Source of the DNA: Candidatus Omnitrophota bacterium
Lineage (GTDB): Bacteria > Omnitrophota > Gorgyraeia > JAFGHF01
Reading direction: 5' to 3'
DNA: 64,000 nucleotides
Assembly: GCA_020341815.1 (NCBI GenBank)
Contig: CP070837.1
Location: 1,236,575-1,300,574, forward strand
A program made the position numbers and the translations under genes. Positions 12,001 to 60,200 of this stretch are shown piece by piece (within the stretch, counting starts at the first letter, position 1; each line of letters begins with the position of its first letter). The notes under the pieces were generated by a model that saw nothing but the letters and a program-made list of their open reading frames with translations, was not told where the DNA came from and made no database searches.

Positions 12001-15000
12001 GGTGAAGGGGAAGAAACCTTCGCCGAACTTGTTAGGCACATATCGTTAGGCCTAATGGATTTATCACTCATAAAGGGAATCATTTATAAGACAAAAGAGG
12101 GAAAAATTAAAAAGACTGCACCGCGGGAGCTTATGAAAATTGAAAAATATCCTATGGCTTCTGAAAGTATAGATTTATTGGAAGTTAAAAAATATCCATT
12201 ACATAGAGGAGCAATTTTTACATCAAGAAAATGTCCGGGAAGATGTATTTTTTGTGCCTCACAGAAAATATTTGGAGACAGGAAATTAAATGATATCAAA
12301 AGTGCAGAAAGCATCTTTGGGGAGATTATGTATCTATACAATCGCAATATAAGAACAATAGATATATTAGACGATACTTTTACAATAAATAAGCAAAGAG
12401 TATTGAAATTAGCCGATTTAATAGAACAATCAAGAATAAAAATAAAATTCTTTATTTCAACACGGGCGGATTTTATAGATAAGAAGATAGCAGATGCCTT
12501 GAAGCGAATGGGTTGCGTAACTGTCAGGATAGGGGTGGAATCCGGCGACCAAGAATTGTTGGATAAGGTGATTGATAAAGGCATAAAATTACAACAGGTT
12601 ATTGATGCTACAAGGCTGTTACAGGAAATTAAAATATATATGGTGCACTATTTTATATTTGGTCTGCCGGACCAGAATTGGGATAGCGTTAGAAAATCGG
12701 CTCGATTTATGTTAAAAAATCCTCCAAATAGAGTAAATGTTTTTATGGCAGTGCCTATTCCCGGTTCCAGTTTGTATAGCGACCCAAGAATATCTGTAGT
12801 TGACCGAGAGAATTATTCTCTATATTACTCTATGCCATTAAGCACAGAAGCATTTTCTCGCCTTCCTTGCTTTACAAAAACCAATGTGATGAATAGCGGA
12901 AATATAAGTTTGGCCCGTTGGGCATCAATGGAAATCTTTAGAAATAGAAAAAATCCGAGAATTGTTAAGAAATGGATGAAAAAAATAGGGGTTTCCTCCC
13001 CGGTTTCATTTCTGGACAGGGCAGAAAATAAACTCAAGAGTATGGGGTATTTGGTGGAAAATAATCTTTTTTATTTTATATATGAACAAATCCTGCGCCA
13101 TATAAATTTGGACATGAAAAAGGCAGACTTTATGGATACGCGGGATGTTAGGTTAAAGGCAAGAAGGATAATAAATTTAATTTCTGCTATGAAAAATTTG
13201 GGCTATTTAGATAAAAAAGCCGATATAGTGAAATTTCTTGCTTACGGGTTAAAGCCAGAATTTTCTGATGACCTTGAGAATATGAATTACCGAGATCTTA
13301 CCGATGCGGCAATTTGCCAGTTAATTTATATTATATTAGATGGCTTATTGTGTGAAACCGGAGGGGAAATAGCAGTCTTTAACAGCGCTTCCAAACCCGT
13401 GATACTAGTTTTCCCTGATGGAAATATAGATATGCCTGATAGGCTGTGCTTGCTTATAGATATCGATTTTGATAGAGCAGGGCAGGAAATCCTGTATAAA
13501 CAATTTAGGGTGGGCTCCTTCTATCAGCCCCATTTTTATAGCAATAAATATGTAATATTCTTTTTGAAAAAAGGCATAGATATTACAGATTCTACCGGAA
13601 AATATTTGACAGAAAATTGCCCTTACCTTTATTCTGCGCTTCCTTTACGTAAAAATATGGGATTTTTGAATATGATTTGCACAAAACGCGCACAGGCTTA
13701 TGAAGATTTATTGAAAGATGTCCCCGCCGCTATTGCAGAATGTGAGAGGATGATTACAATTAGAGATAAAAAAGATGATAGCGATAGAAGATTTGATAAT
13801 TTGATTTATGGTAAATTCTTTAATCTTTGTAGCCAAAACGGCTGTTATGAGAAAATTAATCCCGAATTGCTTAGAGTTATCCGTGTTTATGCCGGAATTC
13901 TTAGTGAGATTTTTGACGATAATCCCGGCAATATAGATGAAATCGATTTAGTTGTTTTAAAAAAGACATTCAGAAAAAGCGAGGAATTTAAGTTATATGA
14001 GAATTGCGCAAAGCTGGACTGGAATACATTTTGCCGTGGATTAGAAAAAAGTTCTTTAAAGACATATTTCGAAAGGCTTATTAACAAAAAAACTGTATTT
14101 CTTGAAAGAGGAGACAGCTTTGATCCTGAAGTTGAGCGCCAGGTAAATGAATTAACTCGGCTCTTGGGCAATGCAATTATGTGGGTTAGATTAATGGCGT
14201 TCTTTGAGGATGATATTTCTGCAGAGACATTAGGGGTGTCTATAATGCCGAATATGTTTGACACAGTAATTACAAGCTATGCCGGCAGGCGCTCATCCAG
14301 GTCTTCGCCTATAAGGCCTACGGAAGAGCCGCTTTCTCCGATAGCCGCTTGCGCCTTGAAGAATCTTAGACAGACAATTTTACTTATCGATGTATTAGTA
14401 AGAGATAATTATGATAAAAAGGATATGGATATCCCCGATCTAATTTTTAGTAACCTGCAAGCTTTAGAAAAAGATTGTCAAGTAATTGAGAGCGAAGTAA
14501 TTAAAATATTCAAGGCATTATGCATAAAAGATAATTATGATAACATTCTGACATATATGAAAAATTTTCATTCAGAGATTGGGGTAATTTTGTATAGATT
14601 ATTTTTGGTGACTGCAAGAATTGATATCGCTAAAAATATTTACAAAAAACTGGGTGAAGCGATAAGCACCTTATATCTTGTTATTGAAATGACAATTAAT
14701 TTCATTCAATTCCAGACCATAGGCTTTCTGAATTTAACAGAATATTATGAAGTCACAGAGAATCGCAATGAGGAGACGAAGGAAAGTTCATATATTCTTT
14801 ACATTGGAAAAATGCTGCTGGGTATGTTCTGCCACTGGAAAAGACGCTTACGTAAATTAGAGGAAAGAGGCGGGATGAATTTGGCGTTAAGCGACCTAAA
14901 TGTCTTTGGTGAAGCCGGTTCCGGATTATGGGAATTGATAAAGATTTCTTATAATTTGAAAAAGGTGTTTGCAATAGCAGATCATTATTTTCCTCTGCTT

Positions 15001-18000
15001 CTGGATCCGGAAGATAAGAAAACGCCTTCCGATACGGAGGAAGAGAACGATACGGAAGTTGCTCATGTAGCGAAAGGGTTAATCGAAGTACTTCTGCTTG
15101 CTCAGGTAACCGGAGGTATATTCCCTTGGGGTATCAGAGGCCCAGGAGCGCATTCTTCTCCGGTGATCCAGATTGAACAGATACAAAACTGGCTTAAAGA
15201 GCGCATTAACAGCCCGCCTGACGAAGCCTTTGTGAATTTCTCCCCATCAGCCCAATCCAGCCCAATCCGCAATGAAAAATACCCCCAGACCCCCTCCCAA
15301 AAAATCAAACCCCTTAGCAGCCCAGCAATAAGTAAGAGCAGAGAAAAGATAGCGCAATTAAAGGAATTGCTTGAAGAGCCAAAAAATGCGGCCTGGCTGG
15401 CCTATCTTCCGATTAAGGGGCAGATGAAAGGCAGTAATAAAGATGAATTAATAAAGTCAGTTATGGCCTGGATTAGGAAAATAAAATCCTTTAAAGATAC
15501 TTACATGCAAGAATTGAAAGATATAGAAGATGAGATAAGCAATGTTTTTAAGCCGATTCTTATTGAGTTTAGCGATATTCTGGGCCAGGCTGCAGATATT
15601 GGGGAATATTTCGTGAAAAAATTAGAGAAGACTACTTCGAGAGACTTAAATATCTTTCTGCAACAAGGACAAGAGGTGCTTAGAGTCAGAAATTACATTG
15701 AAAAACTACTTAAAAATTTAGAAGAGGCAAGTAAAACGCGCAAGGGCACTTCCGGAGCCGAAGAATTTATGTTACTTTTCGGGTGTGAAAACTGCCTGGA
15801 AACCCTCAATAATGTTAAACAGATGAAAGGGCCGAGCCTGTTACAAGTCTTTACCGTATTGCACTTTAGCATTCAATGTTTATTGGCGGCATTAAGCTTT
15901 CTTGGCCAGGATGAGTGGTTCCTCCTTAAAGAAAGAAAACAGATATATGAGGAATCGCTAGGACGTATAAAAAAATTATTGAAGAAACTATATCAACTGC
16001 AAAATGAAGCTAAAGCTAAAGGTGTTAATAATAAGATAGTAGAAAGGCCAAAGACAGGAAAAAGGGCCCTGTATAGGTATTTTAAAACGGATATACAATA
16101 TTTGGTTGTTAAAATTGATTATTTAGATGCAAGATGGACTACATATGGGGAAGAAACAATGACAACCATAAGAGAGGAATTAGAAACGAACTGGGAAGAG
16201 AGGATTTCATGGTATGAGAAAGTATTGAAAGAATTAACATCGTCTTCGCCCCTGGAGAGCCCAATCATCCTATCTTTATCCCCGCCATCCAGTTCACCTG
16301 CCATTAAACAGACAGAAGATTCAAACGGAAAAATAAAAAATCAGTCGGCGTCTATACATATTGATTTTGACAAACTAGAAAGAGCAAAGCTGCTTTCCTG
16401 TTTAATCGAATTATCTTGCCTTGAAGGAAATAGAACCAAAGAGGAAGTCCTGAATATTATTATTTTATCTGAACAGGGATATACAGAAAAAGAAATCGCT
16501 AAAAAAATAGGAGGGTCTCAACAAAATATAAGCCAATTTTTTCAGTTTTTACGCAGGCGCCTGGAATTGCTTATAATGAATAGTCATATAATAAGATTAG
16601 GCATAGAAAAATTGCCGGAAGAAGCAGAAAATTATTCTTATCCTGTGAAAACATTAATGGTGCGGCTGTTTCTATTAAGAGAAGCAATGTTGAAACTCGC
16701 ATTGCAGGAGTGTAAAGAAGGAACAGAAGAATGCAAGAAAATAATAAAAAAATTAAAAACCCTAGACACAAAAAGTAAAAATTTAAATAGAGATATATCA
16801 ATCTTTATAGAATTCCTTATAACATTAAAAAAATCAATGCTTATTAAAAAATTTAGTATTTCTGAAGATGTAATATGGCGTGTTTTAAATAAATATGCAC
16901 CATTGCTTGAGGATATTCTTAAAAAAGATTACAAAATAAAAATAAATATAGGCAAAGACCCATCCTCAAGCTTCAGTTCACCCGCGTTTAATCGTGAGGA
17001 TAGGATGATTGAGGAGGCTTTACGGAGGACAGAAGTTATGCTGTATGGTATAGGTTATTCTCTGAGAGGTGACTTTGCTGAGATGTATAAAGATATCCTT
17101 GATAATATAGAATTTGGCGGCAGAAAGATAGATTTTATAGAAAAAACGCCGGAATGGCAAAAGGCGCATAAGATAATAGATTTTATTTCTGCTGTAAAAA
17201 GATATGGCTATTTGGATAAGAATAGCCCTATAGTGCGGTTTCTTGCTTATGACTTGTCCTGGAATCAGGAATTTCGCACTTCCTTTGAGAATTATGCAGA
17301 TCTTTTATATGCGGCGGCTTGTCAATTGATTTATATTTTATTAGATGCATTTTTATATAATAGTAATGAGAAAGATGATAAAGTTTCAGTCTTCAACAGC
17401 GCTTCAAAGCCCGTAATTGTAGTTTTTCTTGATAACAATAGAGATATGTCCGATAGACAATGTATGCTTATAGATATGGATTTTGGCATAAAAAAGGATA
17501 AAGAAAAAGACGAATTTTCATTTACATATACAAAGTTTAGGTTAGGGGACTTTTATTATCATCATTTTTTTGGTAGAAAATATCTGGTATGTCTTTTAAG
17601 GGAAATAGAAGATAATAGACAAAATAGGCCCATTAAAGATTACTTAAGCAAAGAATATGCTTATATTTATTCTGCATTACCTTTAGAGAGAAATACCGGA
17701 TTTCTAAGCCTGGTTTGCGGAAAGCGTGCACGAGCTTTGCATGATTTCCACAGTAAAACCGAAGCCGCCGTTCGAGAATGCCAAAACGTGCTTAAAATTA
17801 GACAGGGGGCTTTCGGTAATTTGATTTACGGAGAGCTATTTCATATCTGTATGCAAAATGAAGAGAATAGATATACGGCCTATAATTTGGTGGGGAATGT
17901 TTTTACTTACGCCCGTATTTTTTACGATATTTTTAAGAATAATATAGAAAAGGTTGATTTATCTATTTTGAAAGGTGCCATCAAAAACAGCGATGAGTTT

Positions 18001-21000
18001 AAAGGTATCTACAGACATTGCGTAAGATTATACTGGGATGAGTTTTGCGAGCAAATTCAGGGTAAAAATTTAGAGACTCATTTTTCAAGAATTATTAATA
18101 AAAATGATATATTTACAGAATTGAAATCCGATAATTTAGATTTATTATTCAAGAATATAATTATGTGGATTAGGCTAATGGCATATTTCGATGAGCACAT
18201 TACCCCGCAGACATTCGGCGGTAATATGCAGCAGCTTCTGAATACGATAATCCATAGGGCTTATGAATTGAATAATAAATTGTCCAGCTCTCCGACTTTC
18301 TTTGTAAAAGAACGGCCATATATGAGTGCAGAAGCGGAAGAGACGCTTAAATTTAAAGAGGAAACATTAGTAATTAAGTCTCTCACAAAAGAAGAAAGGG
18401 GCTTATTGGCTAAATATAGAGAAGAATGCAATGCCTTAAAGCAGAATCCAGTGCAGTATCTTAAGGCAGCCTTAGGGTTGATAAAGTATGAAATCTCCTT
18501 AGGGCGCATCCGTTCCGCCGCAAAGCTCCTTATGCGCGTGGAGGAAAAATTGACAGCCATTGCTGAAAAGAATACCGGGGACCTGCGGGAACTATTGGAA
18601 AGGGATAGTTGCATAGAAGATATCGCGGTTTATCCGCAGAAAAGAAAGGCACTATTGAAAACCATGAGGTTGCAGCCTTTTGCTTCTCAGGCCAAGAAAG
18701 AAATACTCGAATTGATAAAAAGGATAAAGCAACAAAGGGTAATCGTCAAGGTCGCTTTAGCACGCAGTCGATTATATATCGAGCTATCTCCTGATAAATT
18801 GGGTGTGGCCCGGGCTCATTTAACTATAGCTCGCCTCTGCGAAAATGCTCTTGAAGAAAATACAAAAGCAATATGGGCTTGCCTGTCTGCTTTGAACAAT
18901 TATAGAGTTGTCTTTCTGGAGACTCAAAATGAAGAAACGAAGGAAAGGGCTCGCCAAGACGCCAAAGTGGCGCAGATGTACTACAAGCGCCTATTGCGGA
19001 AATTCCCCAAAGCTCGCGAGGAATATCTAAGACAATTAAGTGAGTTTAGAGAAAAAAGAATATTTTTCAATAATAACAATGGAGCTTTCCGCTTCGATAT
19101 AGATACCCTATTGAATAATTTACCTCATTTACTAAGCCAAAGAGAAATCATCTATCTTTTAAATAAAAGAAAGCTTGACGAACATTTCTATAAGCGGCTC
19201 TTGAATAATAGAAACAAAGCACTTAGAAACCACAGAATACCGAATTTTAATGCAAAAATAATTAGAATTAGAAGTGGACAACGGCCAAAATTTAGCGGCT
19301 CTCGGCATAATTATTTCGATGAGATACTCTCTATTATAGCCGATACAGACGGGCAAGGAGAATTTACGGCTGACTCTATATGGATAAAGCTGAACATCGA
19401 TGTGCCGGGAGTAATAGAGCCAATATTTATTGCATTCAGAATTACAAAGATTGGTGCAAAATCAAGCGAAAGAGCTCTTACTAGCAGAGAGTTATGGCCG
19501 AATTACCGCATAGAAATTTATTGCGGAGCGGAGAATTATAACAAGGTGAGAGAAACTATTTCCTCGCCCATCGGGAAAAAGGCAGTTAAGCCGATTACGA
19601 ATCTTAATTTTAGCAGAATAAACACGCTAAAGATACTTTCCTGGATAATGAGATTATCTTCATCCAGCTCGCCGGTTATTATAAAAATTACTCTCCATGC
19701 GTTAAACGAGAAATCGAGTTCTTTGCTAAAGAATAAAAAGATCTTAAGAGGAAATCTCCTTAAATCCATATCCATAGAAGGAAGTTTCGATGAGATTGAA
19801 AGGCGGGCCGAGGAGCGCATTCCCGATGAGATTAACAGGAGAATATTTATTCTAAAAGTTTTGGGATTTAAAGGTCCAGAGATTGCCAAGATTCTTTATG
19901 AGGAATATTTGACAGAAAAAATTTTGCATAGGGCAAGTATAAGCCTTAGATATTTAGAGGCAAAAATGCAGTTTCTCGGAATTGCAGAAGAAAAGAAACC
20001 CAGAAAGATTAAAGAGAGAAAATGGACCTGGGACTTGCTTGTTGACCAGTGGTGCAACAAAGAGCTTGTGTTTCTTGCAAAAGTCAGTGCTAACGGCATC
20101 TGGATTGGCAACAGCCCGGATGGCAAGCAACTTGTGCTTAATAAAAGCCGCAAGAAGATATATCGGCAGATAGAACAAGTAGTCGTAAGAATATTAGCCA
20201 GAAATGGTTTTAAAATTGCCTATGTTTATTCATTAAACGGAGAAGAAATAGACGCAAAGCGTCTTTGGCTTAAAGAGAATAAGCTTTGCCAGGAGAGTTT
20301 TGCTGTTAATGTTCTTTCAGATGATTTCGAAATAGAAATGCTAAACGAAAATGGCCTAAATTGTTTTGCCCGGAAAATAGCCAGAGAGATGGGCAGGGCA
20401 TTGGAAATTATTGAAGAAGCCACGAAGAAAAGAGATTACAGAAAGGCTATGCAAGGCATCAAATCGCTTATCGAAAAGATATCTGAAGAGAAAAATAACT
20501 TATTGAAAAGTAAACAGGGGAAATCTCTTGAGCTATTGAGAAAATGGAAAGCTGTAATTTATGGAGTATTCTATATCTATGATGAAGAAATGAGTTTGAC
20601 TGATTGCCTGATAGGCCTAATGCGTAATTTCAGATTTTTAGATGAGGGAATATATCCAGCAGAAGCAAAAGAAAGTAACCGGAAAATAATATGCATCTTA
20701 AAAAAGATTAAAGGAAAATTACAATCAAAGTTTTTCAATGAGCTTGTTTTCAAAGATACCACTATAACTACAAAGCTTATTTTGGATAAGGTTGCTAAAG
20801 TTGAGTCTGTTGCCGATTTGGCCAATAATTTAGTCCTGGAGTTAAAGGGCTTAATAGATGATTTGCAAATAGAATTAAAACCAGGAGAGGATTATTCAAA
20901 TCTAAAGAAAAAAATAGATACATTTATTAATGATAATATTCCCCCTTCTGTTCAGTCCCTGGAAGCGCCTTCTCTTAAACGGTTTTTGGAAAATAAGAGC

Positions 21001-24000
21001 AAGAAGACCTCTCCCGATTTAAGTGAGGAAGGAATTGAATTAGAGAAGCAGATGGCTCTGCTTCAGTCATTTAGAGATAACGCAATCAATCCTTTATCAG
21101 GAATTCTATTAAATTTCCAGCTTATAAATCAAGAAGATTTCTTGGATAAGGTTTCTGAAATAAATAGGATGCGAATGGAGGCTTTAGTTAAATTAAGGAA
21201 TATTGTAATTCTTTTAGAGGAGCTAACTTATCCGCTGAGGCATTATTCAGGCAGGAACTTATATCCGATAATAGTTAAATATAAAGAAGATACTCTATTG
21301 CCATATATAGGCTTGCCTGAACATAACATGGGAGATGTTCAGAGGTACTCAAGCCCGGTAGTGTATTTCTTGGATGAGATAGACGTTTCTAAAGAGGTAT
21401 TGGAAGAAGAAATTGATACATGGAATCCTCTTGAGGATAATCCACGTGAAAAAGAAGAATATATTAACTGGAAATGTGGATGGGGATGGGCCTGGACCAA
21501 GGATCCCCTGGAGCGTTACATTGTTTTAGAACTGATACTTATGCGATGCCGCAAGGATAATATCATAGATGTAACTTCAGATGAGAAGGGCAGGACTAAG
21601 CTCATTTTCACTCTGCCGCCACCCAATAGGATAAAAGAAGCCGTTGTAGAAAGCCGTCTTATCCGGCCGGAACTTATTGCTTATGATGAAGCTTTTGCAT
21701 CTATAGTCAATCCCGAGTTTCAGCCATTAAAGGTTGTTGCCTATCTGGCAGCGGGAGCGAATATTTCCCATCTTTACTTTTTAACCCATTTTGCAGGGGA
21801 AGATACAGAAAGAGTCGAAATTGTCTTTGTTAAGACAAAATTACCAGAGATAGATACAGAGCTTCAAGAAGAACTTGAAGGAAAAGTCCAAATCTGCTGC
21901 CAGAGAGCAGCCTCTGTTCTTCCCAGTGATTATGGAAAGTTCTTGCCTGGCGTCTCTAAATGGCTGGGGCCGCAAGGATATCTGCTGTTGAATCCTTATA
22001 TTGAATCCAGGAAGCTCTTCAATCCTATGGATTCTTTGCAGAATAAGAATTTTACCCTTATATCTGAAAACGAGCAAATAGAAAGATATTTACAAGAAGT
22101 AAGGCGTGTCTCTATTGAGATGAAAGTTCAGCCTTACGGCTGGTATATGAATTTGCTCCAGAAAAGCAGCTCACCAGTAAATATAGAAATCTCTAATTAT
22201 GAGATAGGTTCGGAATTGCTTATTAATCCTTATGGCGAAGGCCTAATGCCGTTGCATAACTTAGCTTCTGGGCTGGGGCCTCTTGACTGCGCAAAAGAAG
22301 GGAATCATGATATTGCGCTCTCAAATGGAATTGCTGCATTGGCAAAAGTTATAGCAGCTAAAGTGAGCCAGAGGCCGCAGCAGCATATGATTATAGTGCT
22401 CTTTGGAGGAGTTGCGCAGGCTGGGGGAGATGCCTATCGGAGAGAATTGGAGCTATCAATTAACGAATGCTTGAAAAAATTCAAGGTCAACAAGGAAGTA
22501 ACAGTTAAGCTTTCTTCTATGGGTAATGAGAATGTTATCATTGGCGCGATAGATTATGCCATATCAAAAATGTCTGCTTCTAAATACGATAAATATGAAT
22601 GGTTCTGCGGTGTGGATTTGGGAGGTAGTGGAGTGCGGCTAGTTTTGGTAAATCCGAAAACGGGAGAGAAGAAAACTATACACCAGTTCGATTTCTCTAA
22701 GCTGGAAGAGACTATTGAGGGAAAGCCTATACTAGCGTATTGGGGAGATTTAAGAAAGGAGTTTCGCAAGGGAGCTCAAAAATTAAATATAGACTTAAAT
22801 AATAGTGTGCCCGATAATCTGACAGGCAGAATTTTTAATAAAAAACAAAAGGGTATTCACAACAAGATTTCCGATATTTTCTTGAAGCATATAACGGCAT
22901 TAATAAGAGAAGTAGTGGGGGATAAAAAGTGCCCTGTATGTATTGGCGCGCCGGGAATATTTGGTGACGAAGGCCGGGTGAGGCTTATGTATAATTTACC
23001 TTTTACGGGCATTAATGTAAAAGAGGCCTTAGAAGAAGCGCTGGGTTTACCGGTATATATGGGTAACGATATGTACTGTGCGGGAAGAGGGGAGGCATTA
23101 GAAGGCTGGGGTAAGAACAGGTCCTGGAGAGAATTTCTTATCGTGGGAATAGGAAGCGGGATTAATATGTGTTTGGTAAAGAGGCGATATCGGGTTTTAA
23201 CCGATGTTCGGCTAAGGGCCTATTTATTTGCTTCGGCATGGAATATTGCAAATGAGGCCGTTAATAGAGGAATAAAGATAGTATTTATCAATGGTAAAAG
23301 CGCAGTACAGACAATGCTGTTATTTGAAGAATGCCGAAAAAGACTATATCCGGAAAGCGATAGGCCGATATATATATGGTTACAAGGCGCTAATAGAGCA
23401 GGCACAGGCGGGTATTATGCAGAAAGGGTTATTAATATAATTAGATACATTGAAGAGTGCCTTAATGAGCCTGTTCTTATTATTGATGACTCTGTAAGCG
23501 GTACTTTAGCGAAGACAAAAGAAATATTAAAAAATGAGTTCGGCAAGAAAGATGAGGTGTATACCGCAGCTTTAATATTGCAGCCTTGTTGCCGGAGCTT
23601 AGATATTGAGCTGACAATTATGCCAAAAGAAATAATGCTTGAGGAGTTATGGTATAGAACCTGGAATTGGTATTTGGCAAGAATTAACAATAACTCTGCC
23701 CCGGATAAATTATTAGGCCTTCTTAACCAAGACTTGCCCTGTGATTTTGAGCTTTTGGTTGAGGAGGGGGCAAAGTCAGATGCCTGGGAGAAAATTAGAT
23801 TTAGAAATCAGGTCGATTCATTGCTACAAGAATATCCTTATCTAAAATTATCATATAGTTTTCTTAGAGAAAACCCGGAGGTTTGCAGGAATTTAGGTAT
23901 AGATTTGCAAATTCCCTTCGCAACAGTAAATATGCAATTTAGCCGCATGGTGCAAGAGGTCTTTGGTATGAAGTGGAAAGAATTAAAAAGAAAATATCAG

Positions 24001-42000: not shown

Positions 42001-45000
42001 GTTAAAATATATATTGATACGAGAACGGGATATTTAATACAAGGATTTAATTTTGCCAAGGAAGATACCGTAATAATTGAATTTGAACAAGCTTTGACTT
42101 TTGAGGATATAAGAAAATATGCGGATATTTGTGTGTTTGTATATGCAGAGCAACAAATTCAAAAAGATTTATTTATGGGAAGAAGAGAAAACGGGGAAAG
42201 ATACCCAGACCTTACTGAGGAACAAGCAAGAGAAAAATTTAAAGAATTATGTGCAAGGGTAAATGCCAATCCTCTATGTAGAGAAGGGGAACAACACGCA
42301 AATATTATTATTGTTAATACAGCTTATCTTGCCCGTAGTTTGCAGCATGAATTTGGTATCATGAATCCACATACATCTTCCCCGATAGTGAAAAAAGGGA
42401 ACGGTTCTAATTCTTTATCCGCCTCGCCGGTGGAAGGGGAAACATCCCATTCTCAAGATATTAAATTGAGCCAAAGAGAAATCGATTCTTTGATTCAAAA
42501 TTTAAGAACAGATAGTTATTATGAAGTATTTAAATATTATTGGAATAAATTTGCTATATACGGAGAAAAATGCCCTAAAGAACTTATCATAGTGAATAAG
42601 TTGAAGTATAGAATTTTATTGATATCTAATACCGTAGGTCTTCCGGAGTCACCGGAGGATACCTATGGGCGAATTTTAAAGTTTATTGAGTGTAAGATTA
42701 AAAAAGACCTTAATTCTTTAAAAGAAATTAGAGAAACATCGTTATCTTATGATGAATGGCCTCTCGAGCTTAAAAAAATAGTAAAACAAGTACAAAATTT
42801 TTTGTGCAAAATTTTTTGGGAAAGATACAAATTAAACGTTACAATAGATTTAGCACAAAAAATGCTGATAGATAATCAGTTTGGATCATATAATTACGAC
42901 ACTTCCCGTTTAATTGACAAATTTTTTGTGAGTTATGAAAAAGATATCGGCAATTTCATTGTTAAGATTATCCATGAGGCTTTACATGTTTATTTACCCT
43001 TTGGTTTTTTCGATATTTTTGATTTATTATTTTTAGAAGAAGGTTTTGTTTCTGAGGAGACAATTGCATTAGGTCAATTTTTTCAGCAACAAACCGATAT
43101 TCAAATAAAAGAGGATTCTCATCTTTTGAATAGAGAGGTTTATAATAAGATTGAGCGAAAGGTTGGACGAGATGCGGTTATGGAATTTATCCTTAGAGGG
43201 TCAAGAGATTTATTTCTTGATAGATTTGGAGAAAACAGCCATATTGTATTCGCTATCTTAAATTATCTACAGCATTTAGATAACATAAAATGGCCTGAAC
43301 GTATGGAGATAGCAAAGAATATTATAGACAATAGTTGTAATTTGCATGTGTTGAAGAATTTTATTATAAAGGAGAAGGAACAATATCTGTTAGATAAGAG
43401 ATTTGTTTGTAATGTCTGGAATGTCGTTAATAAAAGAGGGACTATTTTCAATCCAAATTTATTGTTATCCAATCCCATAAACGCCGCCGCTTCGCCGGTG
43501 GAAAAAAAAGTAACGGAGACAATCGCAGACTGTCTACAGAAAGGACATTTTGTAAGATTTGATACCATTGCAAAAATGACAGATGTCAAAGTCAATGAGG
43601 TTATGATTATTGCGTCAAAGAGATATCCCAGGCAAAATATAAAGGAAGATGGGATTTGCAGTAAGTCCTATCCGGGCGATAGAAGGGTATCTTCATATGA
43701 AAAATGGTATATAAATTATATTATAAAAAAAGAAGGAGGATGTCCACTAGAGATAGATAAATTTGTGAATCTGACAGAGGAAGGCTTTTATTTCGGGTTA
43801 AAAGAAAAAAATAAGGAACCTCATCAGGGCATCGAAGGTTTTTATGTAGATGGCAAATATCTAAAAGCCAAGAAGGTTTATTATATATCTTCCCCAGTGA
43901 ATAACGCTTTTGTGAAAAAAGGAAATGGTTCTACTTATTTATCCGCCTCGCCGGTGGATAAGTTGAGACCCCGCGCGTCAATCTCCCGATATATTTTAGA
44001 AGGAGAGGTAAACATAAGCCTTTTAAATTATAACTTTCTTATAACTCTTGCACCAGTCCTACCATTGCCATGTTTTGAACTTTACACATTACGCTTTGTG
44101 GATAGAGATGACAAATTCCAAAAGACAGCAGCCGAGATTGAAATATATATTCCTTTTGAAAGACAAGAAGAAATAGGACAAAAGAAAGAAATAGAGATTA
44201 GAGGGTTTGAGATAATGGCCCCTTATTTGCGGAAATCATTAGCTAAATATTTTCTCGTTGTATTTTTAGAAATTTTAGATAAGTATTCTCTTTTTAATAA
44301 TTGTAATTTTAAGAGAGTTAATATAGTGGGCCATCCTTTATTGGCCAAGGAATTACTGGAATTCGGCTTTGAACCTATTGATAAAGAAACACCAATATAT
44401 CTTGATATGGGAAAAACAGGAGAGCATATTTTCGTTTATATACCCAATGATAGTATAAAGGAGAGGCTTGTTTTACCTCCAAATAGTTGTATTAAGTTCC
44501 TTGAAGAAGAGCCCGGCGATAATTATATAAAATTATTTGTCGATACGCCTTATTATTTATCTAACAGCACCAAGATGGACGAGAGATATGAAACGCTTAT
44601 TAAAGAAATTAAGCTTTCTTCTATAGAAGAAGGTAAGGAATGCTTATCTTTTAAACTAAACTCTAAAAGGGAGCCTTATTTTGCAATACTTACTGTTTTA
44701 AGATGTTGGTTAGAAGAAATGGATATTTGTAACAGAAAACATTCTGAGGGGCTGCAACGTTATGCAGCACTAATTGCACAAGAGATGAGATTGAAACCTG
44801 AGGAATGTAAAGCAATGGTGATAGGGGCATTATTGCACGATATAGGTAAAAGAAATATCCCAGAAGAAATCCTTTTAAAGCCCGGAGAGCTCAATAAAGA
44901 AGAAGAAACTATAGTGCATGAGCATTGCGTGGAAGGCTTGGCAATGATTTTGGGAGAAAAAAACTTTGAGTGTATAATTCCCTTTATGACTACAAAATAT

Positions 45001-48000
45001 AAAATTAGAAAGCGCATATTTATATATAACCTTCTGCAAATAATTCATGATTGCATTTTGCATCATCATGAACGTTATGCAGGAGAAGGTTATCCTGCAG
45101 GAGGAAAAAGAGGTAAGGGCATTCCTTTGGCAGCACGAATTATAGCAGTTATAGATCACTTTCATACCTTAATTTCATTAAGGCCATTTAAGCAAGCATT
45201 ATCTTTGGAAGAAGCATTAGAAAAATTAAGGGAGGAAAAAGGTAAGAAGCTGGATCCGGATATAGTAGACCGTTTTATAGAAATTATTAAACAGACTGGA
45301 ATAATTGATTGCTGGGATACGGATATGTGGTGGAGGCCTCGCAGAAATACTAAAAGACATTCTTTAACAAAACTTTTCCATCCTGCGCATTTCCTAATGG
45401 ATGGCACTTCTGCTTCTCTTGTTTCCGCCTCGCCGGTATCTCATGATGTATATGCTGCGGCGGTACATATCCTTGGTTTAAACATAGGGGAGTTAACCAA
45501 AGAGACAGCATGCGAATTTCTTCTCAAATTTTTCCAAACAGAAGATGGAAACATTAGAGAAATAAGAGGTATTCTAAGTTTTAGGGATAAGGATAGCAAA
45601 GAAATAGAAATTACAGATCTAATAAAAGCTATAGAACAGACAGGCCTTGATTCTTTCTATCGTCTTCTGGTTAGGGATCTTGCTGCCATTACCGTGATTA
45701 ACAGTAGTGATAAACAAATAGAATTTTACAGGAAGTATGTCGTTCTGCTGAAATATTGGGAGACATCCTCAAAGGAGGATATAAAGAATGAATGTAAACA
45801 ATGTATGGATGAGATATGTAGGTATTATTTATCTAAAGAGGTACAAAGGCGAAGTGAGAAATTTAAATATGAACATTTTTCCTATCGTGTTCCAATTAAG
45901 GATGACTTGATAACACAGCTTTATGAGTCTTACGATGTTTTAGACGATTTAGTGAAGATGTTGTTTTTAGAGTATATTAAACGCACAAAGGAGTTTCCTC
46001 ATTTTGAGACACTTAGTGAAGAAGATATTAAAAACAAAACTTTAGTTATACTATTTTATCCTTGCGAAGAGAGAGAGCTAAATAGAGGAATTTTACCTCC
46101 CAATATTTTTTCTCTCGCTAACAGTATGGTGGCAGAAGATATCAATGTAGTTTTAGCGCCTATGCCGACCAGACTTGCAGAGAAAAACTTTGCCTATAGG
46201 TATTTAAATACAATAAATGCCTATTTAGATCTAAGAGATGTATATAGTGGCCATCCGGTTATGTATGCATGGATGAATATGCTTGTCGGCAGGTATATGC
46301 GAATTTTTAAACAGTTAGGTATGGAAGAAAAAGAAATCCGTATAAAGTTTAATTTTGGTGTATCAATGTTAGATTCTACTTATCCCGATGGCCTGGCTCT
46401 TAATGAGATGTTAAAGCAAAAATTCCCTGAGTCTAAGGTTTATGTAGGTGGGCCTACTGTATCAGCCGAGCCAGAATTGGCGTTTAAAGAAATGTTTGAA
46501 AAAGTTCCCCATAACCCAAATTTTTTGATAAATGGAGAAGCAGAGATTGTATTCCCCTATGTAGTGAAAACGTTAAATAATTGCAATGGGGCAGAAAAAT
46601 TGGAAGATTCTATTATTCAGAAATTATCCGGATGCCATGGTCTTGCGCTTAAGTTTGGCGGAAAGATATCTACTTTTAGATTTAAAGAAAAAAATATGAT
46701 CAATGAAGAAACGATGAATGGATTACCTTTCTTTCCGGAAATTATCGCTGATGATTCCGCAATTTATTATGTTCCTGAAAGGGGATGCCGACACAATTGT
46801 TTCTTTTGTGCGCGGATCACATCGCATAAAGTGCGTATGTCCAGCGCCGATAAAATATTAAGTGATTTAAGGATGATGGATAGAGCTATAGGAGAGTTTA
46901 GACAGACGCTTTTAAAGCGTATAAAAGATAAAGATATGCTGTGGCTATTTGAATTTCCTTTTAATGTTGAAGATAGAGTTTCGATTTTTGAAATTTCTCT
47001 AGTTTTGTTAAATATATTTGAGAATTTAGGAGAAAAAGGAGAAAACATAATCCCGAATAAGTATACCGAACTAATACAAAAATGGGACAGAGACGGAAAT
47101 ATTGAGAGAATAAAGCTATCTTACAAAAGAGCCGGTGATGATATATTTGAAAAATTACAAATTATTATAAATGAAACAGCCGTAAACTTTAGTATGCATG
47201 AGAAGGTGCATATTGATATTGATGATAATAGTTTTTTGCATGATAAGTTTATAGCGATAAAGGTGCTTAAGGATTTAATAGATAAACCTTTACAGCATAT
47301 CCGGGTTAAAAGATTCCAGGCTCATGTAAAAGATTTTAATACACCAACGGGAGAGCCCGATGAAGAAATTGCTGATGTTATAAGAGAAGTTCTTAATGAA
47401 GAGGATGAAGGAGTAATTTTGGGTCTAGAAAGTGGAAGCAACAGGGCTTTAGCCGATTGGTGCAAAGATTTTGATTGGGAATACGCCCGGCAGCGTATTT
47501 CCTGGCTCGATAAGAAAGTCAAGGTTTTTATAAATCTGATTATTTCAAGACTTGAAAGCAATCCTCAGGAAATTATTGAATCTCTAGGCAACATTGCATT
47601 ATTACTTTTAGATACAGAAAATGTAAAGATAACATATGTATCTTTTCTTATGCCTCTTCGTGGCTCATCAGCAGGTAAAAGATTTAACGAAAATAAGCAT
47701 AAAGGAATTAAACCTTTTAGATTTATGGATCGTTATTTAGAGAAACAAATATATTTCTATGAGTTTCCCGATGATGAGGTAGTGAGAAATGTTCTTCCAA
47801 GCAATTATGAAGATTTAGCTAATTGCATGTATTATATAAAAAGCAAGAAAGAAATCATAGCGACCTTTAAGAAAGTTATGACACTTTTAATGGAGGAAGC
47901 TAAGTTAACTCATCACAAGGATCTACGAAAGATAGAGAAGATATATTTTAAGAAGATACAGAGGCTTGAGCAATATTTAGCTAGCAGCCCTGTAGAGATT

Positions 48001-51000
48001 ATAGAGGAATGTCTTGTTAGTTCTGAAAACAGTTCGCCGGTGGATTCAAATAAAGAAAGTAAATTAGGCCTCGAAGTGCCTATTTTTGTGTATGGTATCT
48101 TGGATGGTGCTTTATCTATTGGAAACGTAGAACGATATTGTGATAAGTTGAAAATATTGTTAAAAGAAGATGAACGTATTGTTGAGGTGAAATTTGGCTA
48201 TGATGTGAATGACTACAAGTTTTCAAATTTTATAAAATTTTTCAAGGAGGCACAATCTCTTTCTCCGGAAGGCGCAATAATTTCTATTATGGGTAGGTGG
48301 TATGAACATTGCGTAAAAACTGCCTGTCAAAATGCAGCGGAATTGGCAGAGGATTCAAATTTCCCTATATTTATCATTCTTATTGAAACATATATAGAGA
48401 CTATGTTATCTCGATATTCATTGGCACAAAATAGAATAAAAAAGGGTTTAATTGAGATTGATAAAACTAAAGGAATAAATTTTATTGTTTTTGTTAATGA
48501 CGAAGTAAAAGAATGCAATCCACATATATATAAAGATAAAAACCCCATAATTATAGATATTTATTCAAACGAAAAACAATTTTCTTTGCATGATTTCCTT
48601 ATGAGAATTAAGGCATGGCGCGAGAAAGATCTTTATTGGCTAAGGCAAGAAAAAAAGCCTGAGTTTTTATCCGATGAGACGACCAAAGAATCTATTGAAA
48701 GTGCTGAATTTAATGCATTAGTTAAAGACCCTTTTATTTCCAAAACAAAATCAAACTTTAAAGGTAACTTATCTGTTTTTAAGCAGATGTGCGCGAAGGC
48801 TTTAGTAGAAAGGATAAAAATAGTTTTAAGGGGTGTGCCTTTAGAAAAACTGCCTAATTTTACTCTGGATGATTTATACGAGGAATTAAAAGAAATATAT
48901 AACTCAAATACAGATAAAGCAAATAATCGAAAGAAAAAAAATTCTTTCATTATACGCATAGAGAACATGCTGAAATTAGCCGATCCACCCGATACTTCCT
49001 GGATAAAAATAAAAAAAGAAATTATGCTAGAAAAAGCAAGACAATTATATCCTCCTGTTCGACAAAACAGGGAAATTATCAAACAATTAAATGACTTATT
49101 GCCTTATATAAAATATAAGAATGAAGGAGCAACTTTTAGGAAGATACTAAAAATAAGAGTAAAGGAATTGTTAAAAAATAACCCCTATATGCTCGAAAAT
49201 AAAATAAGAGCTCAAATAACAGAAGATTTATCTCTTCCGGAAAGGATTAGCCAGCAGAGATTTTATGAATGGTTAATACCGTTGGGCGGTCTTAAGCAAT
49301 TGCGCGCTGAGGCATTATATGAAATATTGGAAGAAATAACTGCAAAAAGACAAGAACAAGAAGCCTTTAGTCTGGATAGATTTTTTTATATATTTGCTGG
49401 ATTGGGATTGTTTGGCGAATATCATATAACTAAAAAAAATTTTCTTAAAAAGATAAATAATTTATTAATCAGATTAAATACATCTTTTGAAGAAACAGTA
49501 GGAAAAAATAATGTTTCCAACTCACCGATTGGAAAAGAGGTAGGGCCCGGGATTTCTTCACCGGTCAATAGAGCTGAAATTAAAAAGTTCCGGATAAGAA
49601 AAAGGCAGAGAAGAGCATTCCTGCATAACTTAGTTAAGAAGTTTCCTTGTCTTAAAGTTATATATTTGCTTGAAGATGAGAGGAAAGCCTTAGAGGTAAC
49701 AATAGATAGTTTCTTGAAGAAAATAGATATCTATCTATCAAAGCTCGAAAGCAATTTTAATAATTATAAAGTTGGGAAGGGAGAAGACAAGGAAAACAGT
49801 AAAGAATTAGTTAGGAATAACATTAAATCAATACTTGATAGTATAGACGATCATTTTGCCGATTGCCGGATTATAGAAGGTGTAGTTTTTACAACATTAG
49901 GCCATTTTTTAGCAAATAGTTTAATTGCTTTATCCGGAGCTTTGCATCTTAATGAAGAAGAAAAACAATTTTATCAGGATTTTACACAGATAATCTCACA
50001 ATTAAAATTATTAAAATCTGCTTCAGTAATTCTTGTAAAAGAATTTGGAACTATAAGACATATTGAATTAGATGCTACTGTTTCAGTTGATTCCTGCGGG
50101 AAAAGGATAGAAATACCGGGTGCCTATTCCAGCTTCACCACATATATCAGGCAACTTCCTTCTAAGTTTCTTCTGCGTAATATTTCTCCTAATCTTACTG
50201 TTAGAGCACTGGGGCAGTTGGGAAATATCTATTTAAATCCGCTGGAAAAGGATAAATTAACTCAATTTGCAGAAGATATGCGAGCTATTATAATTTGTAT
50301 TTATGAAAACTTAGCTTTAATCCATGCTCCCCCCGTGAAGAAGTCTAATGCCGAAACCTTCCCTATAATTTTCTGCAACCCAAGAAAATCCCCATCTTAC
50401 AATAAGAACCTTTCACTAAAATCAGCCAAGCAAGACCTGCCGTTGCTAAAAGCCGCCTTCTATCTACTTTCTCACAGAGATAAGTCTTATTTGAATTTTG
50501 GTTTGAAGACCATACTTGAGGCTCTGGAAGCTTACCGCTCAGAATCAACACAAGAAGACAGAATGCGCAGGCTGGTTAAGGTGCTTAAGGCCCGCACGGG
50601 TGGCAATATTCAAGCCGCCGCCTCGCCGGTTAATTTTGACTGCCAAAGTAGCAAAAATAGAACCGTCCCCTTTTCCTTGCAAGGGACTTGTGGTGAGCGA
50701 GCGAAAGTGAGTCGAACCACCGCCTCGCCGGTTTCTCCATTGACATTTAGTTCTAAAAAACAACTATTAACTACATACATGATGCTTTTATCTAGGCAAA
50801 TGGCTTTTAATCATTCCAAATCAGAATTATCACAACTAAAAGAGATTTGGAAAAAGTTCTTTAATAACTTAATAGTCAATATAAATAAACAAATTTTCAA
50901 TAAAGCATTTATACCTACTAAGCAATTTCTTGATAAATGCATCAAAATAGAATCCATCGATAGTTTAATAACTATGTTCTGTAATCGCCAATTAGTGCCT

Positions 51001-54000
51001 TTTCATGGTAAATACGCTTCCCATTATAGCTATGTAGATAATATTTTAGAGAAAATAAAAACAGCAAATAATTTTTCCGATACCTGTAAGATTATGTTTA
51101 TGTTTTCAGATAACCCAGAACATATCAGTTGCGTCTATATCGATTTTATCGAAATTAATTATTACTTTATGGAAATATTGACTGATGATGAATGGGCTGC
51201 GATTTGCACCCATGAATTAGCACATAAAAAGAAAAATCATTTTGAACAATTGTTAAAACTTAAATGTACACATAAAGGCGCTCTTACTAGAAATAGTGAA
51301 ACATGGAAGAATTTTATAAGAAAGATACAGATTGAAGCCGATAAATTTGGTTTGGAGTATGCAATAAAAGCAGGATATAGGCCTGAAGGAGCAGTTACTC
51401 TGTTAAAGAGAGACCTCGAATATTATCTAAGAAAAGAGGAATATCCCCAGTGGTTAATGAAAGATAGCATAGAGATAGAGTCTATACGTGTATTAAAAGA
51501 TAGAATCGAAGCTCTAAAGAAGCACCCTTCGTTATCTCATCTTGCCGCCTCGCCCGCCACAAAGCTTGGCGAGACTTCGTTGCTTCGCTCCAGCTTGCCG
51601 GTGGATTTAGTTAGCCGGTTCCCTTTGATGTTAATGAGACTGGAAGGATATGACTTCTTTTTGTTCATCAAAGGTAATTTTGAAGCGCGGAAAGATATCC
51701 ATCCTGCCCAAAAGGAGAGGTACTTCTTCTATAAGTGCCCAGGCAATGCGTATTTTAAGCCTGTATTTGCCAATAGTCAGATAAGCGGTTTTGAGGATGT
51801 AAGCAACCCCTCCTCCGGAAACACCTCTAATTTCATAAATTTTGTCAGAAGGAGTTTGCTTAAACCCCAGAGCCCTGCCCAGATTAAGGGGCAGCATAGT
51901 GATGTCTGCTCCAGAGTCAATATACATAGGAGTTTCTATTTTCTTTTGATTAACTTCAAGAATTACTGTGGCAATTGGGCGGAGGATTTTGCCCCAGTGC
52001 AAGGATGGCTGGCGTTCGTATTTAAAACGGATCATCTTTCGGTTATTAGAACGAGTAATCGTTGGTCAGGGACCTTGGCTACAAAGGGAATCTTATGGGG
52101 GTATTTTCTTCTTGCCGCCTTAAGCATTTCTTCAATATTGGTCCCCGTAGCCACAGGATTGCCCTCAATTATAACTACATATTGGTTAATAAGCTTATCT
52201 TTATTTAGCTTAATATATGCTTGTAAATTCTTATCCATTCTCTCTTTCTCCAAGAGCAAATATAACACACCGCCGACATTAAGTCAACAGAGAATTTTTT
52301 CAACTTTGTTAAGACCGGCAGGCAGGCATCGTTCATCGGTTGAAGATAAAATACTATCGACCAACGACCAACGACCATCGACTATCGAATCTGCCGTTTA
52401 CGCTGAGCAAGGCCGAAGTGCCTCGCCGGTGAAGGATGACCGGAACAAGATCGGCTATAGCCTTTATGATCGGGAGCTGCGCAGGTTGTATTTAAACCGC
52501 GGTTGCAGTTATATTAGTCCTAAGGACATTAGAGAGGAAAAGAATTTTTATGAAAAATGGAGAGAAAGCCAAAAAGTACCACGGATTGAAGACAATCAAA
52601 AACTCAGCTTAGTAAAGAGTACCTTGCTTCCAAGAGAATTAGGGGAATGGACTTTAGAGTTTCCCATTGGAACTCTTGACAGTTTTTCTGTAATTATTAG
52701 AGCATTTGGAGGAAATGTTGTAGCTGTTGTGGAAGATGAAAAAAGAAGAAAAACTTTAATAAAATACAATGAGAAATACGATAAGTCGATTGCGAAGTTA
52801 AAAGGAGGAGTTTTATACGATGTCCTTATAGGCCGAATTGATTCAGCGGAAATTGAACAAACTTTAAAAAAGATTATTCAAAAACAAGGTAAGTTCAAAA
52901 ATATAATTAATTTTGGGAGAAATTCAATAAATAGAGCTTTTGCTAATTGCGCAGATTTTAAATCATCTGGAGGATTCTATTGGTTTGATGTGCAATTTAA
53001 TCTGAAAAATTTTGAACTGGATTGCAGTAATAAATGGATAAGATTTATATTGAGATGGATATTCTGGAGGCATGGTTTCGGAGTTAAAGAACTTATTAAT
53101 TTGCCCAGTCCCAACATGCCTGATTTTCTGTATAAAGCCTGTCTTATTAGATTGAAGGATGATAAACCTAGTAAGACTGCAATAATTTCTTCTCCTGCAA
53201 GCAACCGAAAAGAAATTGATCCTTTGATTCAAGATTTAAGAGGTGACAGAAAAAATGATGGTTCTATTGCTCTCGCCTCGCCGGTGAGGATGAAAAATGA
53301 CTCTGGCCCCATTTTTACTACTTCCTCGCCTGTGAAACTAAGAAATCTTATTATAGGGATAATTGAGGCATCAAAAAAAAATAACAACGAAGACATATCG
53401 CATTATCGCAAGCTTATTTTAAAAGAAGCAAAAAGCAGACCTGCTGAGGTTTGCAATTTATTACGTACGGGCTTAGGGAGGCCAGAGATCGATAAAATCT
53501 ATTTAACAATAGCTGAATATTTTCGGCGTGATTATGAAGTCATCGGCTCTTTAGTAAAAACATTCGAAGGGGATAATAAAGATTCAATAGCATTCCTCTC
53601 CGCTCAAAAAATCCTTTTAGAAATAGCAGATTTTTCTATTAAAGGTTCTTTTGGCAGGGTTTTTATCGCAATTAGAAAAAGCTTACTTAAAAAATCATCA
53701 TCTCAGCTGGCTAGAGAATTTGTTTATGCGATGATAGAAAGAAAACATGGCAAATTAGTAAGAAGAATGATACCCATTTTTGGCGGTTCAGCTAAAACCA
53801 GAATTATTTTTGAAGATATCTTTTGGGAAAAATTCGAATTATGCGTTTTTCCTTTAGCATCTGCCTTGGGCGATAAAGTTAAAGATACCAGAAGATGCGT
53901 TAAAAATTTCTTTTTAAAGAAAGGAAAAGAATCAAGAGAATCGTATAAACTAATTAAATCGGAGCTGAATAAGGTTCAAAGGAGGTTTGGAAGATTTCCC

Positions 54001-56190: not shown

Positions 56191-56278
56191 GCATCAAAAC
56201 GTCCTTTACGACTTCCGGGTAGACTTCCGGGGACAGGTCACTTAATTCTGAATCGCAAGGACGGTTCTAATTCTTCCC

Positions 56279-56292
56279 CCGCCTCGCCGGTT
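56279..56292 (+). repeat. Linker-repeat copy located 3' of the giant-gene stop (non-coding context)
   Basis: cgcaaggacggttctaattcttcccccgcctcgccggtt compares with the in-frame copy at 42395-42432 (aaaaaagggaacggttctaattctttatccgcctcgccggtg) and with 43921-43956. Confidence 0.75.
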
Positions 56293-56408
56293 ACAGGAGA
56301 TACAGAAAAACGGTCGCTGTCCCTATTTTCTATAAAGGTATTCTTATTTCAGAAAGTCCCTATAAATAGGGATTAAGTGAAATGAGGTCTTTGGCTTCTT
56401 GCTACCTG

Positions 56409-56437
56409 CTTGACAAATAAAAGGTATTATGATAATC
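56409..56437 (+). promoter_or_regulatory. Sigma-70-like promoter for the downstream ABC transporter operon
   Basis: TTGACA (56409-56414), a 17-nt spacer, then TAATCT (-10-like). It sits ~50 nt upstream of the RBS AAAGGAGAAA and the GTG start at 56485. Confidence 0.45.
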
Positions 56438-56484
56438 TATATTACTATAATTAAGGCTTATTTAACTTCTTAAGAAAGGAGAAA

Positions 56485-58658: not shown

Positions 58659-58665
58659 GACAAAT

Positions 58666-59523: not shown

Positions 59524-59524
59524 G

Positions 59525-60025: not shown

Positions 60026-60200
60026 GTAAAGGTAAAGTTAGAGGTTTTGGTTTTCAGCTTGACCGCGAGAAGATCTTATTATATAAAGACAGTCCTGCAT
60101 GGGAAAAATTGCAATGGCTGGAAGAAGCTAATCGCTTCTGTCAAAAATTTGTTACCGGCAGGCGCCGCAAAATATGGGAGAGTATCCGCCGAGGATAATT

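Follow-up and report, generated by a model that had tools for sequence, protein, structure and literature searches.

Two kinds of giant genes have been described in Omnitrophota: the 'Archaeovorin' type, for which the criterion is an open reading frame (ORF) above 90,000 bp (West-Roberts et al. 2023, bioRxiv 10.1101/2023.11.21.568195), and the 'multi-enzyme' class, with proteins of at least 10,000 amino acids (aa) (bioRxiv 10.64898/2026.06.07.730766). Internal domain repeats are reported to be the norm in long Omnitrophota proteins: 65% of these carry a repeated Pfam family, and the repeats are read as ancient duplication plus divergence, with the nucleotide similarity dissolved. 'Elongation by duplication' is an open topic in the published work on these genes, and the cleavage points in the giant proteins are stated as unknown (West-Roberts et al., bioRxiv 10.1101/2023.11.21.568195). 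The gene described here fills most of a stretch of 64,000 nucleotides (nt) from the genome of an uncultured Candidatus Omnitrophota bacterium (assembly GCA_020341815.1, contig CP070837.1, positions 1,236,575 to 1,300,574 of the forward strand), referred to as the window. It shares with the published giant genes the Omnitrophota origin, the single ORF of tens of kilobases, and the mostly unannotated sequence. The gene contains three large pairs of duplicated modules, which differ from the published repeats in belonging to no Pfam family and in being dispersed, not tandem; they are a new, quantified, and ordinary example of a known phenomenon. Bacterial genes with tens of thousands of codons were discovered only recently, and this gene gives a quantified case of how they may be built.

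1..56190, + strand: giant ORF, frame 1, with a lone in-frame stop (TAA, 56188-56190) and its 5' end open at the window edge

The ORF encodes at least 18,729 aa in the 56,190 bp that are visible, with the frame still open at window position 1. The analysis covers this one 64-kb window, and all figures for the giant ORF refer to its visible 3' part.

The initial annotation proposed three pairs of collinear paralogues within the ORF, and all of them are confirmed as whole domain-sized modules with similarity far beyond chance. With the coordinates proposed there, BLASTP gives 41% identity (E=4e-93) for the first pair (P1), 27% (E=3e-22) for the second (P2), and 69% (E=5e-106) for the third (P3). 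In Smith-Waterman comparisons, the scores of the three pairs stand at z = 117, 27, and 99, respectively, relative to 300 shuffled sequences. The proposed coordinates were off by no more than about 110 nt from the refined extents, which are listed below with the nearest copies of a tetrapeptide linker motif, [SA]SP[VAI].

13012..14310, + strand: module P1, copy a (P1a), aa 4338-4770, 433 aa; SSPV 3 aa upstream, SSPI at the end
17020..18294, + strand: module P1, copy b (P1b), aa 5674-6098, 425 aa; SSPA 12 aa upstream, SSPT at the end
36325..36864, + strand: module P2, copy a (P2a), aa 12109-12288, 180 aa; begins with ASPI, SSPI 18 aa downstream
55555..56163, + strand: module P2, copy b (P2b), aa 18519-18721, 203 aa; begins with ASPV, forms the C-terminus
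37926..38719, + strand: module P3, copy a (P3a), aa about 12643-12906, ~264 aa; SSPA 5-8 aa upstream, none after
48702..49498, + strand: module P3, copy b (P3b), aa about 16234-16499, ~264 aa; none before, SSPV 20 aa downstream

The modules are of different character: P1 (~430 aa) is mixed alpha/beta, P2 comprises ~190 aa, and P3 (~264 aa) is all-helical. The copies of P1 are 38-43% identical in aa and 60.5% in nt, those of P2 24-29% and 51.3%, and those of P3 64-71% and 78-81%. The aa identity of 40-70% estimated at first is therefore correct for P1 (~41%) and P3, but too high for P2. The placement of the second P2 copy at the C-terminus was correct, as P2b ends 8 codons ahead of the stop codon at 56188-56190. 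In the chunked self-BLAST of the protein, off-diagonal signals are present for all three pairs. At the DNA level, self-comparison shows direct repeats for P3 and for parts of P1, whereas P2 is invisible.

Within P3, a run of 62 nt is identical in both copies (38216-38277 and 48992-49053), whereas about 21 nt would be expected. It is possibly a conversion tract, or else a strongly constrained helix (TSWIKIKKEIMLEKARQLYP). No third copy of any module was detected by module profiles over the giant ORF, except that aa 7972-8064 (window about 23914-24192) weakly resemble P3. The likeness concerns the C-terminal half of P3 (…LGGLK.LR.E) and extends, again weakly, to a smaller pair of paralogues, X2, listed further below (FGK.L..L+.EYQ motif). 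It may reflect a small helical domain, possibly similar to DNA-binding ones, with more than two diverged copies.

The ages of the pairs were compared by the synonymous divergence (dS) and the ratio of nonsynonymous to synonymous divergence (dN/dS), obtained from the Nei-Gojobori codon comparison with a simple Jukes-Cantor correction.

P3: nt identity 80.8%, dS 0.43, dN/dS 0.41
P1: nt identity 60.5%, dS 1.22, dN/dS 0.38
P2: nt identity 51.3%, dS 1.89 (near saturation), dN/dS 0.35

The pairs trace back to three events that are clearly distinct in age, with P3 as the latest, P1 before it, and P2 as the oldest. Internal duplication in this gene is thus of several ages, and it acts on linker-delimited modules. 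Both copies of every pair are under purifying selection (dN/dS 0.35-0.41), which implies that both are used, and orphan modules kept in this way are functional parts of the protein. The mismatches in P3 comprise 101 transitions and 42 transversions and are symmetric. Adenine-directed mutagenesis of the type known from diversity-generating retroelements is excluded for P3 by this symmetric, transition-dominated spectrum, and Pfam finds no reverse transcriptase domain in the ORF.

The window is evidently derived from a metagenome, and both P2 and P3 are helical, with many charged residues, so the pairs could in principle reflect a mis-assembly of chimeric strain variants or a mere compositional likeness of lysine/glutamate-rich helical sequence. 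Such an artefact is hardly credible, given that the 56-kb reading frame is unbroken, that nt identities of 51-81% lie far under strain-level similarity, that dN/dS is below 1, and that the z-scores against shuffled sequences reach 27-117. In an independent assembly from Logan (SRR14739666), window positions 54528-60910 recur at 99.9% identity, and the last 1.66 kb of the giant gene, with P2b and the stop codon, are reproduced exactly. Mis-assembly was rejected on account of this identity over the 3' end of the gene.

Along the gene the modules follow each other in the order P1a, P1b, P2a, P3a, P3b, P2b, with start-to-start offsets of ~4,010 nt for P1, ~10,780 nt for P3, and ~19,230 nt for P2. 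The nested order P2a-P3a-P3b-P2b excludes the copying of P2 and P3 together in a single block. The homology does not extend into the flanks of the modules: in none of the three pairs is there any similarity between the partner copies upstream or downstream (z between -1.1 and 1.1). This is decisive in the case of P3, because a co-duplicated flank would still show at 81% nt identity. The DNA homology of P3 starts abruptly at 37926/48702 and stops abruptly at 38719/49498. Every breakpoint of P3 is adjacent to a motif in just one of the two copies, and for the 3' end of P3a and the 5' end of P3b the nearest motif lies beyond 220 aa. These two ends weigh extra, since P3 is the youngest pair and its breakpoints are the best preserved. 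Tandem repeat expansion by unequal crossing-over was considered as a source of the pairs and rejected, with copies lying 4.0-19.2 kb apart, flanks unrelated, and no array found there by Tandem Repeats Finder, which reports only a 90-nt HEAT pair (nt 3859-4039) and a trivial 16-nt repeat in the gene.

Modular megasynthases (nonribosomal peptide synthetases and polyketide synthases), giant adhesins, and titin contain repeats of known catalytic or immunoglobulin-like domains, usually adjacent and often of high nucleotide identity through unequal crossing-over or gene conversion. The gene described here has in common with them the linker-bounded, domain-sized units of duplication, with copies kept in frame and under selection. 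It differs in having two copies per family, separated by 4-19 kb and placed within unrelated sequence.

The copies are genuine paralogues. We consider it probable that the three pairs were formed by non-tandem copying of discrete cassettes in three events, and that the copies landed at linkers without the linkers having served as the substrate of recombination. In each event, one domain-sized cassette would have been copied, with or beside its [SA]SP[VAI] linker, and placed in frame kilobases away. The copying step would be a non-tandem 'copy and insert', for which illegitimate or microhomology-mediated recombination, template switching, and exchange with a paralogous giant gene are candidate routes; the donor copy may have stood in this gene, or the module may have come from a further giant gene of the genome. 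Selection would then keep only those in-frame insertions that fall in inter-domain linkers. Under such selection the boundaries would lie at linkers even though the linkers are not the recombination substrate.

The linker motif itself is abundant. There are 59 copies of [SA]SP[VAI] at window positions 1-56190, about one every 320 aa (for example at 12994, 14302, 26338, 27628, 36325, and 55555). The tripeptide SSP is observed 51 times, against 2.7 expected (about 19-fold), and SSPV 18 times, against 0.13. Conservation is confined to the four residues of the motif, and the surrounding positions carry near-zero information. None of the 59 copies falls inside a Pfam domain or a duplicated module (3,574 residues in total), where 11 would be expected (P about 4e-6). 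Copies tightly bracket the TPR block of the protein, and one precedes the B12-binding/radical SAM unit; another stands 5 aa after the weak match to an M48 peptidase, and those nearest to the HD domain lie 264 aa before it and 55 aa after it. As for the modules, a motif stands no more than 20 aa away from 8 of the 11 boundaries (or from 9, with SSPT included), whereas 12% would be expected (p about 4e-6), so that the suggested coincidence of duplication boundaries with SSPV-type repeats was indeed found. The C-terminal SSP of P1 and the N-terminal ASP of P2 each align from one copy to the other. In P0001, a protein of another Omnitrophota described below, the P1 module is likewise flanked by SSP at both ends. 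In terms of sequence, the motif is thus a punctuation mark between domains in general, one that moves along with the modules. As it borders domains and is absent inside them, any surviving domain-wise duplication would end at a linker, and the coincidence of the boundaries is uninformative with respect to the mechanism.

At the nucleotide level, the motifs that flank the modules use differing codons, with both AGY and TCN serine codons present, and consequently offer no usable DNA homology today. The motif is written preferentially in rare, GC-rich codons of the gene: TCG is found at 25 of the 59 second-position serines, whereas 7.7% of all serine codons in the gene are TCG. In window 42421-56291, the 11-mer GCCTCGCCGGT is present in 8 exact copies, all on the + strand and all in frame, and in 13 copies if up to one mismatch is allowed (0.26 expected). 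The GC-rich motif codons and the repeated GCCTCGCCGGT point to a recent common origin of the linkers, or to selection at the nucleotide level. Longer stretches of near-identical DNA, here called linker cassettes, are found at several places in the gene and just behind it.

3286..3359, + strand: 74-nt linker cassette encoding KETSSPANSKTQTFGAVVKVDSFSS, 73/74 identical to 6217-6290
6217..6290, + strand: second copy of the 74-nt cassette, near-identical to 3286-3359
2005-2078: third copy of the 74-nt cassette, 78% identical
42388..42434, + strand: 47-nt linker cassette encoding VKKGNGSNSLSASPV, 91% identical to 43912-43958 (repeat family D16)
52412-52491 and 54089-54186: cassette pair after ASPV/GSPV (…SPVKD[DG]R…SLYD[RQ]ELRRLY), with 35 nt at 97%
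56261..56291, + strand: remnant linker cassette (RKDGSNSSPASPV) in the frame of the giant ORF, 24 codons after the stop, 28/31 nt identical to 42401-42431

The two closest copies of the 74-nt cassette have wholly unrelated flanks and are spaced by 2,931 nt, which preserves the frame. They are likely a gene-conversion tract, and 977 codons could potentially be lost or duplicated in frame between them. The presence of RKDGSNSSPASPV past the stop codon suggests either that the ORF once ran beyond the P2b module, or that the cassette is an element at the DNA level.

The initial annotation ascribed the growth of the gene to repeat-mediated recombination at the linker repeats. In its explicit form, unequal homologous recombination between linkers would have produced in-frame tandem blocks, from which later linker-to-linker deletion and divergence would have left dispersed pairs. 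The boundary coincidence described above agrees with such a course. The cassettes have sufficient length and similarity for recombination of the RecA type (the 74-nt pair with its unrelated flanks, the 47 nt at 91%, and the 35 nt at 97%), which points to exchange or gene conversion still going on among the linkers; the 62-nt identical tract in P3 and a possible decayed linker upstream of P3b can be counted on the same side. The long near-identical cassettes, together with the P3 run, make recombination or gene conversion between linkers plausible in this gene. As an origin of the three pairs, however, this course is unlikely. The copies are not tandem, and with unrelated flanks throughout, including those of P3 at 81% nt identity, each pair would require two or more precise events. 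Moreover, P3a ends and P3b starts without any motif within 220 aa, the motifs that flank the modules are spelled in differing codons, and a motif that borders domains generally lets the boundaries coincide with it under any model. Crossing-over between linkers is thus plausible elsewhere in the gene, but the three large pairs were probably not made in this way, and this part of the initial annotation did not stand.

Several observations nevertheless weigh against copying of discrete cassettes. Just upstream of P3b there is a weak likeness to the linker at the corresponding place of P3a (FLSDETT vs YLSSPAT). FLSDETT could be a decayed linker, in which case both 5' ends of P3 would lie at linkers, as the model of linker recombination expects. 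The old pairs (dS >= 1.2) may have arisen by duplication of a larger tandem block, of which the other duplicated parts later decayed or were deleted. The dS values depend on the simple Jukes-Cantor correction, with that of P2 near saturation, and an orthologous giant gene was not recovered by the synteny route, which leaves the duplications undated against speciation and the pairs unrooted. The view is of 64 kb of the genome, and any other giant genes, as potential donors of modules, would lie outside it. Finally, the protein search with P2 and P3 missed a C-terminal fragment of 553 aa that contains P2b and is present, 100% identical, on the Logan contig, so that negatives from the protein database carry limited weight.

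Homologues of the modules outside this gene are scarce. The P1 profile, searched against 1.84 billion representative proteins, has one true match, P0001 (E=6e-21), which is a partial Candidatus Omnitrophota protein that ends in membrane helices and in a segment that looks LysM-like by eye. P0002, a repetitive adhesin, was a false positive of this search. A single-sequence protein search with P1a found no homologue (a weak negative), and P1 has no match in the JGI metagenome contigs. In the case of P2 and P3, a concatenated profile of the two found no relative in the protein database, again a weak negative, and none in the JGI metagenome contigs; P3 has no match in the GTDB genome contigs. Pfam, NCBIfam, PADLOC, and PDB sequence searches gave no credible match for any of the six module copies. 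The AlphaFold2 models were built from two-sequence alignments; that of P1 is unusable, with a mean predicted local distance difference test score (pLDDT) of 41, and that of P3 is mediocre (pLDDT 61) and all-helical, with no match in PDB by Foldseek at E <= 0.001. On the basis of these searches, the modules may be regarded as lineage-specific accessory domains.

The occurrence of P1 in another giant-gene fragment of Omnitrophota, P0001, raises the question of whether both copies of a pair could have been acquired independently, from other giant genes of the genome or horizontally into a hypervariable locus. In related Omnitrophota metagenome-assembled genomes (L005, L006, L008, and L010), a very long open frame, extending past the edge of the locus, is found upstream of the same sugar ABC (ATP-binding cassette) transporter operon that follows the giant gene in the window. 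The C-terminal 1,400-3,000 aa of these frames show no homology to the gene in the window. Such non-homologous C-termini at syntenic loci indicate rapid turnover, and the giant-gene locus appears hypervariable across related Omnitrophota. Several giant genes per genome and loci with mobile cargo are also known from the literature. Independent acquisition is nonetheless quite improbable. P1a is 43% identical to P1b and 28% identical to P0001, which places the P1 duplication after the split from the P0001 lineage. No relatives of P2 and P3 were found outside the gene in the protein database, the GTDB genomes, or the JGI metagenomes, and the composition profile suggests even composition and codon usage throughout the gene. 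Non-tandem copying remains the reading that we prefer.

The three pairs are the largest duplications in the gene but not the only ones, contrary to what the first count of three implied. The chunked self-BLAST gives about ten off-diagonal signals in total in the giant ORF, among them a tandem pair at aa 823-885 and 889-950, short linker cassettes, and two smaller pairs of paralogues, X1 and X2.

1588..2151, + strand: paralogue X1, copy a, aa 530-717; finishes in a linker cassette; 36% identity to copy b, z = 42
2860..3432, + strand: paralogue X1, copy b, aa 954-1144
25597..26079, + strand: paralogue X2, copy a, aa 8533-8693; 30% identity to copy b, z = 21
32518..33036, + strand: paralogue X2, copy b, aa 10840-11012

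The detectable internal paralogy amounts to 2,650 of the 18,729 residues (14%) of the giant ORF, from which it follows that duplication adds roughly 7% of the length. The statement that the gene has grown by segmental duplication is correct insofar as the module-wise copies are real. Duplication is, however, a minor contributor to the length of the gene (about 7%); the remainder is made up of many domains that are unrelated to each other, and most of the growth must stem from the accretion of such domains.

Among five syntenic giant ORFs of relatives, the motif is enriched in one, that of L010, with 6 copies observed and 0.27 expected. The giant frame of L010 finishes in a LysM-like segment. 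The motif could be a candidate site of processing, modification, docking, or pausing. A more specific idea, which we put forward only tentatively, is that the tetrapeptide might be a functional punctuation of one subfamily of Omnitrophota giant proteins (a processing or modification site that divides or marks off the giant polypeptide in pieces of module size, or a programmed translational pause between domains), with the duplicated units being cassettes of a module plus its linker. This idea agrees with the 59 copies outside the recognized domains, the strict four residues in variable surroundings, the SSP at both ends of the P1 module in P0001, the enrichment in L010, the rare GC-rich codons, and the in-frame copy after the stop codon. 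Processed polyproteins, such as the viral ones, are comparable in respect to the linker motif only, as a short strict motif recurs between domains; they differ in that the motif here is known from sequence, and the only protease-like domain in the window is the weak M48 match. Term searches of the two preprints (bioRxiv 10.1101/2023.11.21.568195 and 10.64898/2026.06.07.730766) turned up no mention of [SA]SP[VAI] punctuation. The [SA]SP[VAI] sites are concrete and testable candidate processing positions, and a more novel lead than the duplications.

The domains recognized in the giant ORF by Pfam (E <= 0.01) are the following.

aa 1287-1372: HEAT_2
aa 1548-1647: CxxCxxCC
aa 3898-4236: B12-binding and Radical_SAM
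about aa 7619-7721: ROK
about aa 8797-9200: TPR block
about aa 9614-10117: SecA DEAD, preprotein-binding, and P-loop (PF07517, PF01043, PF21090)
aa 14913-15088: HD_5
aa 17056-17178: M48 peptidase, weak match

In total, ~10 unrelated Pfam families are present, each single apart from the TPR and HEAT repeats. This mosaic of enzyme and scaffold domains (radical SAM, HEAT, TPR, ROK, HD) is shared with the Omnitrophota giant genes. The features of the multi-enzyme class are also seen: the protein exceeds 10,000 aa, and many distinct Pfam families tile it with none dominant by copy number. With the Archaeovorin type the gene shares a SecA-like region that has the DEAD and preprotein-binding domains but lacks the scaffold/wing domain (SecA_SW, PF07516), which Pfam does not find there. 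PF07516 is carried by nearly all canonical SecA matches, and the few exceptions are mostly short, truncated entries. A search with the SecA-like region returned canonical SecA only (~33% identity) and no giant relatives. The gene differs from the Archaeovorin type in its enzymes, since no glycosyltransferase, glycoside hydrolase, methyltransferase, or NUDIX domain, which belong to the defining set, is found by Pfam at the same threshold in the visible 18.7k aa. With regard to peptidases, the visible part holds only the weak M48 match. The domain set and the SecA-like signature match the published descriptions, and the gene accordingly belongs to the Omnitrophota giant genes.

On its 3' side, the giant gene is followed by genes for a sugar ABC transporter (a binding protein and two permeases), a DUF6036 protein, and a GH2-like/TPR protein. 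The solute-binding protein is 71-83% identical to its counterparts in eight metagenome-assembled loci labelled 'Candidatus Omnitrophota', in which the operon is the same, and this places the giant gene in Candidatus Omnitrophota. An exact look-up of two downstream proteins returned no record for either.

Within the solute-binding-protein gene, the window (56758-56859) differs from the Logan contig (L001, 2231-2332) at 8 positions, all of them transitions, clustered in 102 nt, whereas the remaining 6.3 kb are identical. The cluster is possibly a short patch of recombination between strains. The G+C content of the giant gene is ~35%, compared with 44-48% in the downstream genes. Local peaks are seen within the giant gene at 8-10 kb (46%) and at 28-30 kb (41%), the latter corresponding to the SecA-like region, and the GC-skew falls to about zero at 50-52 kb.

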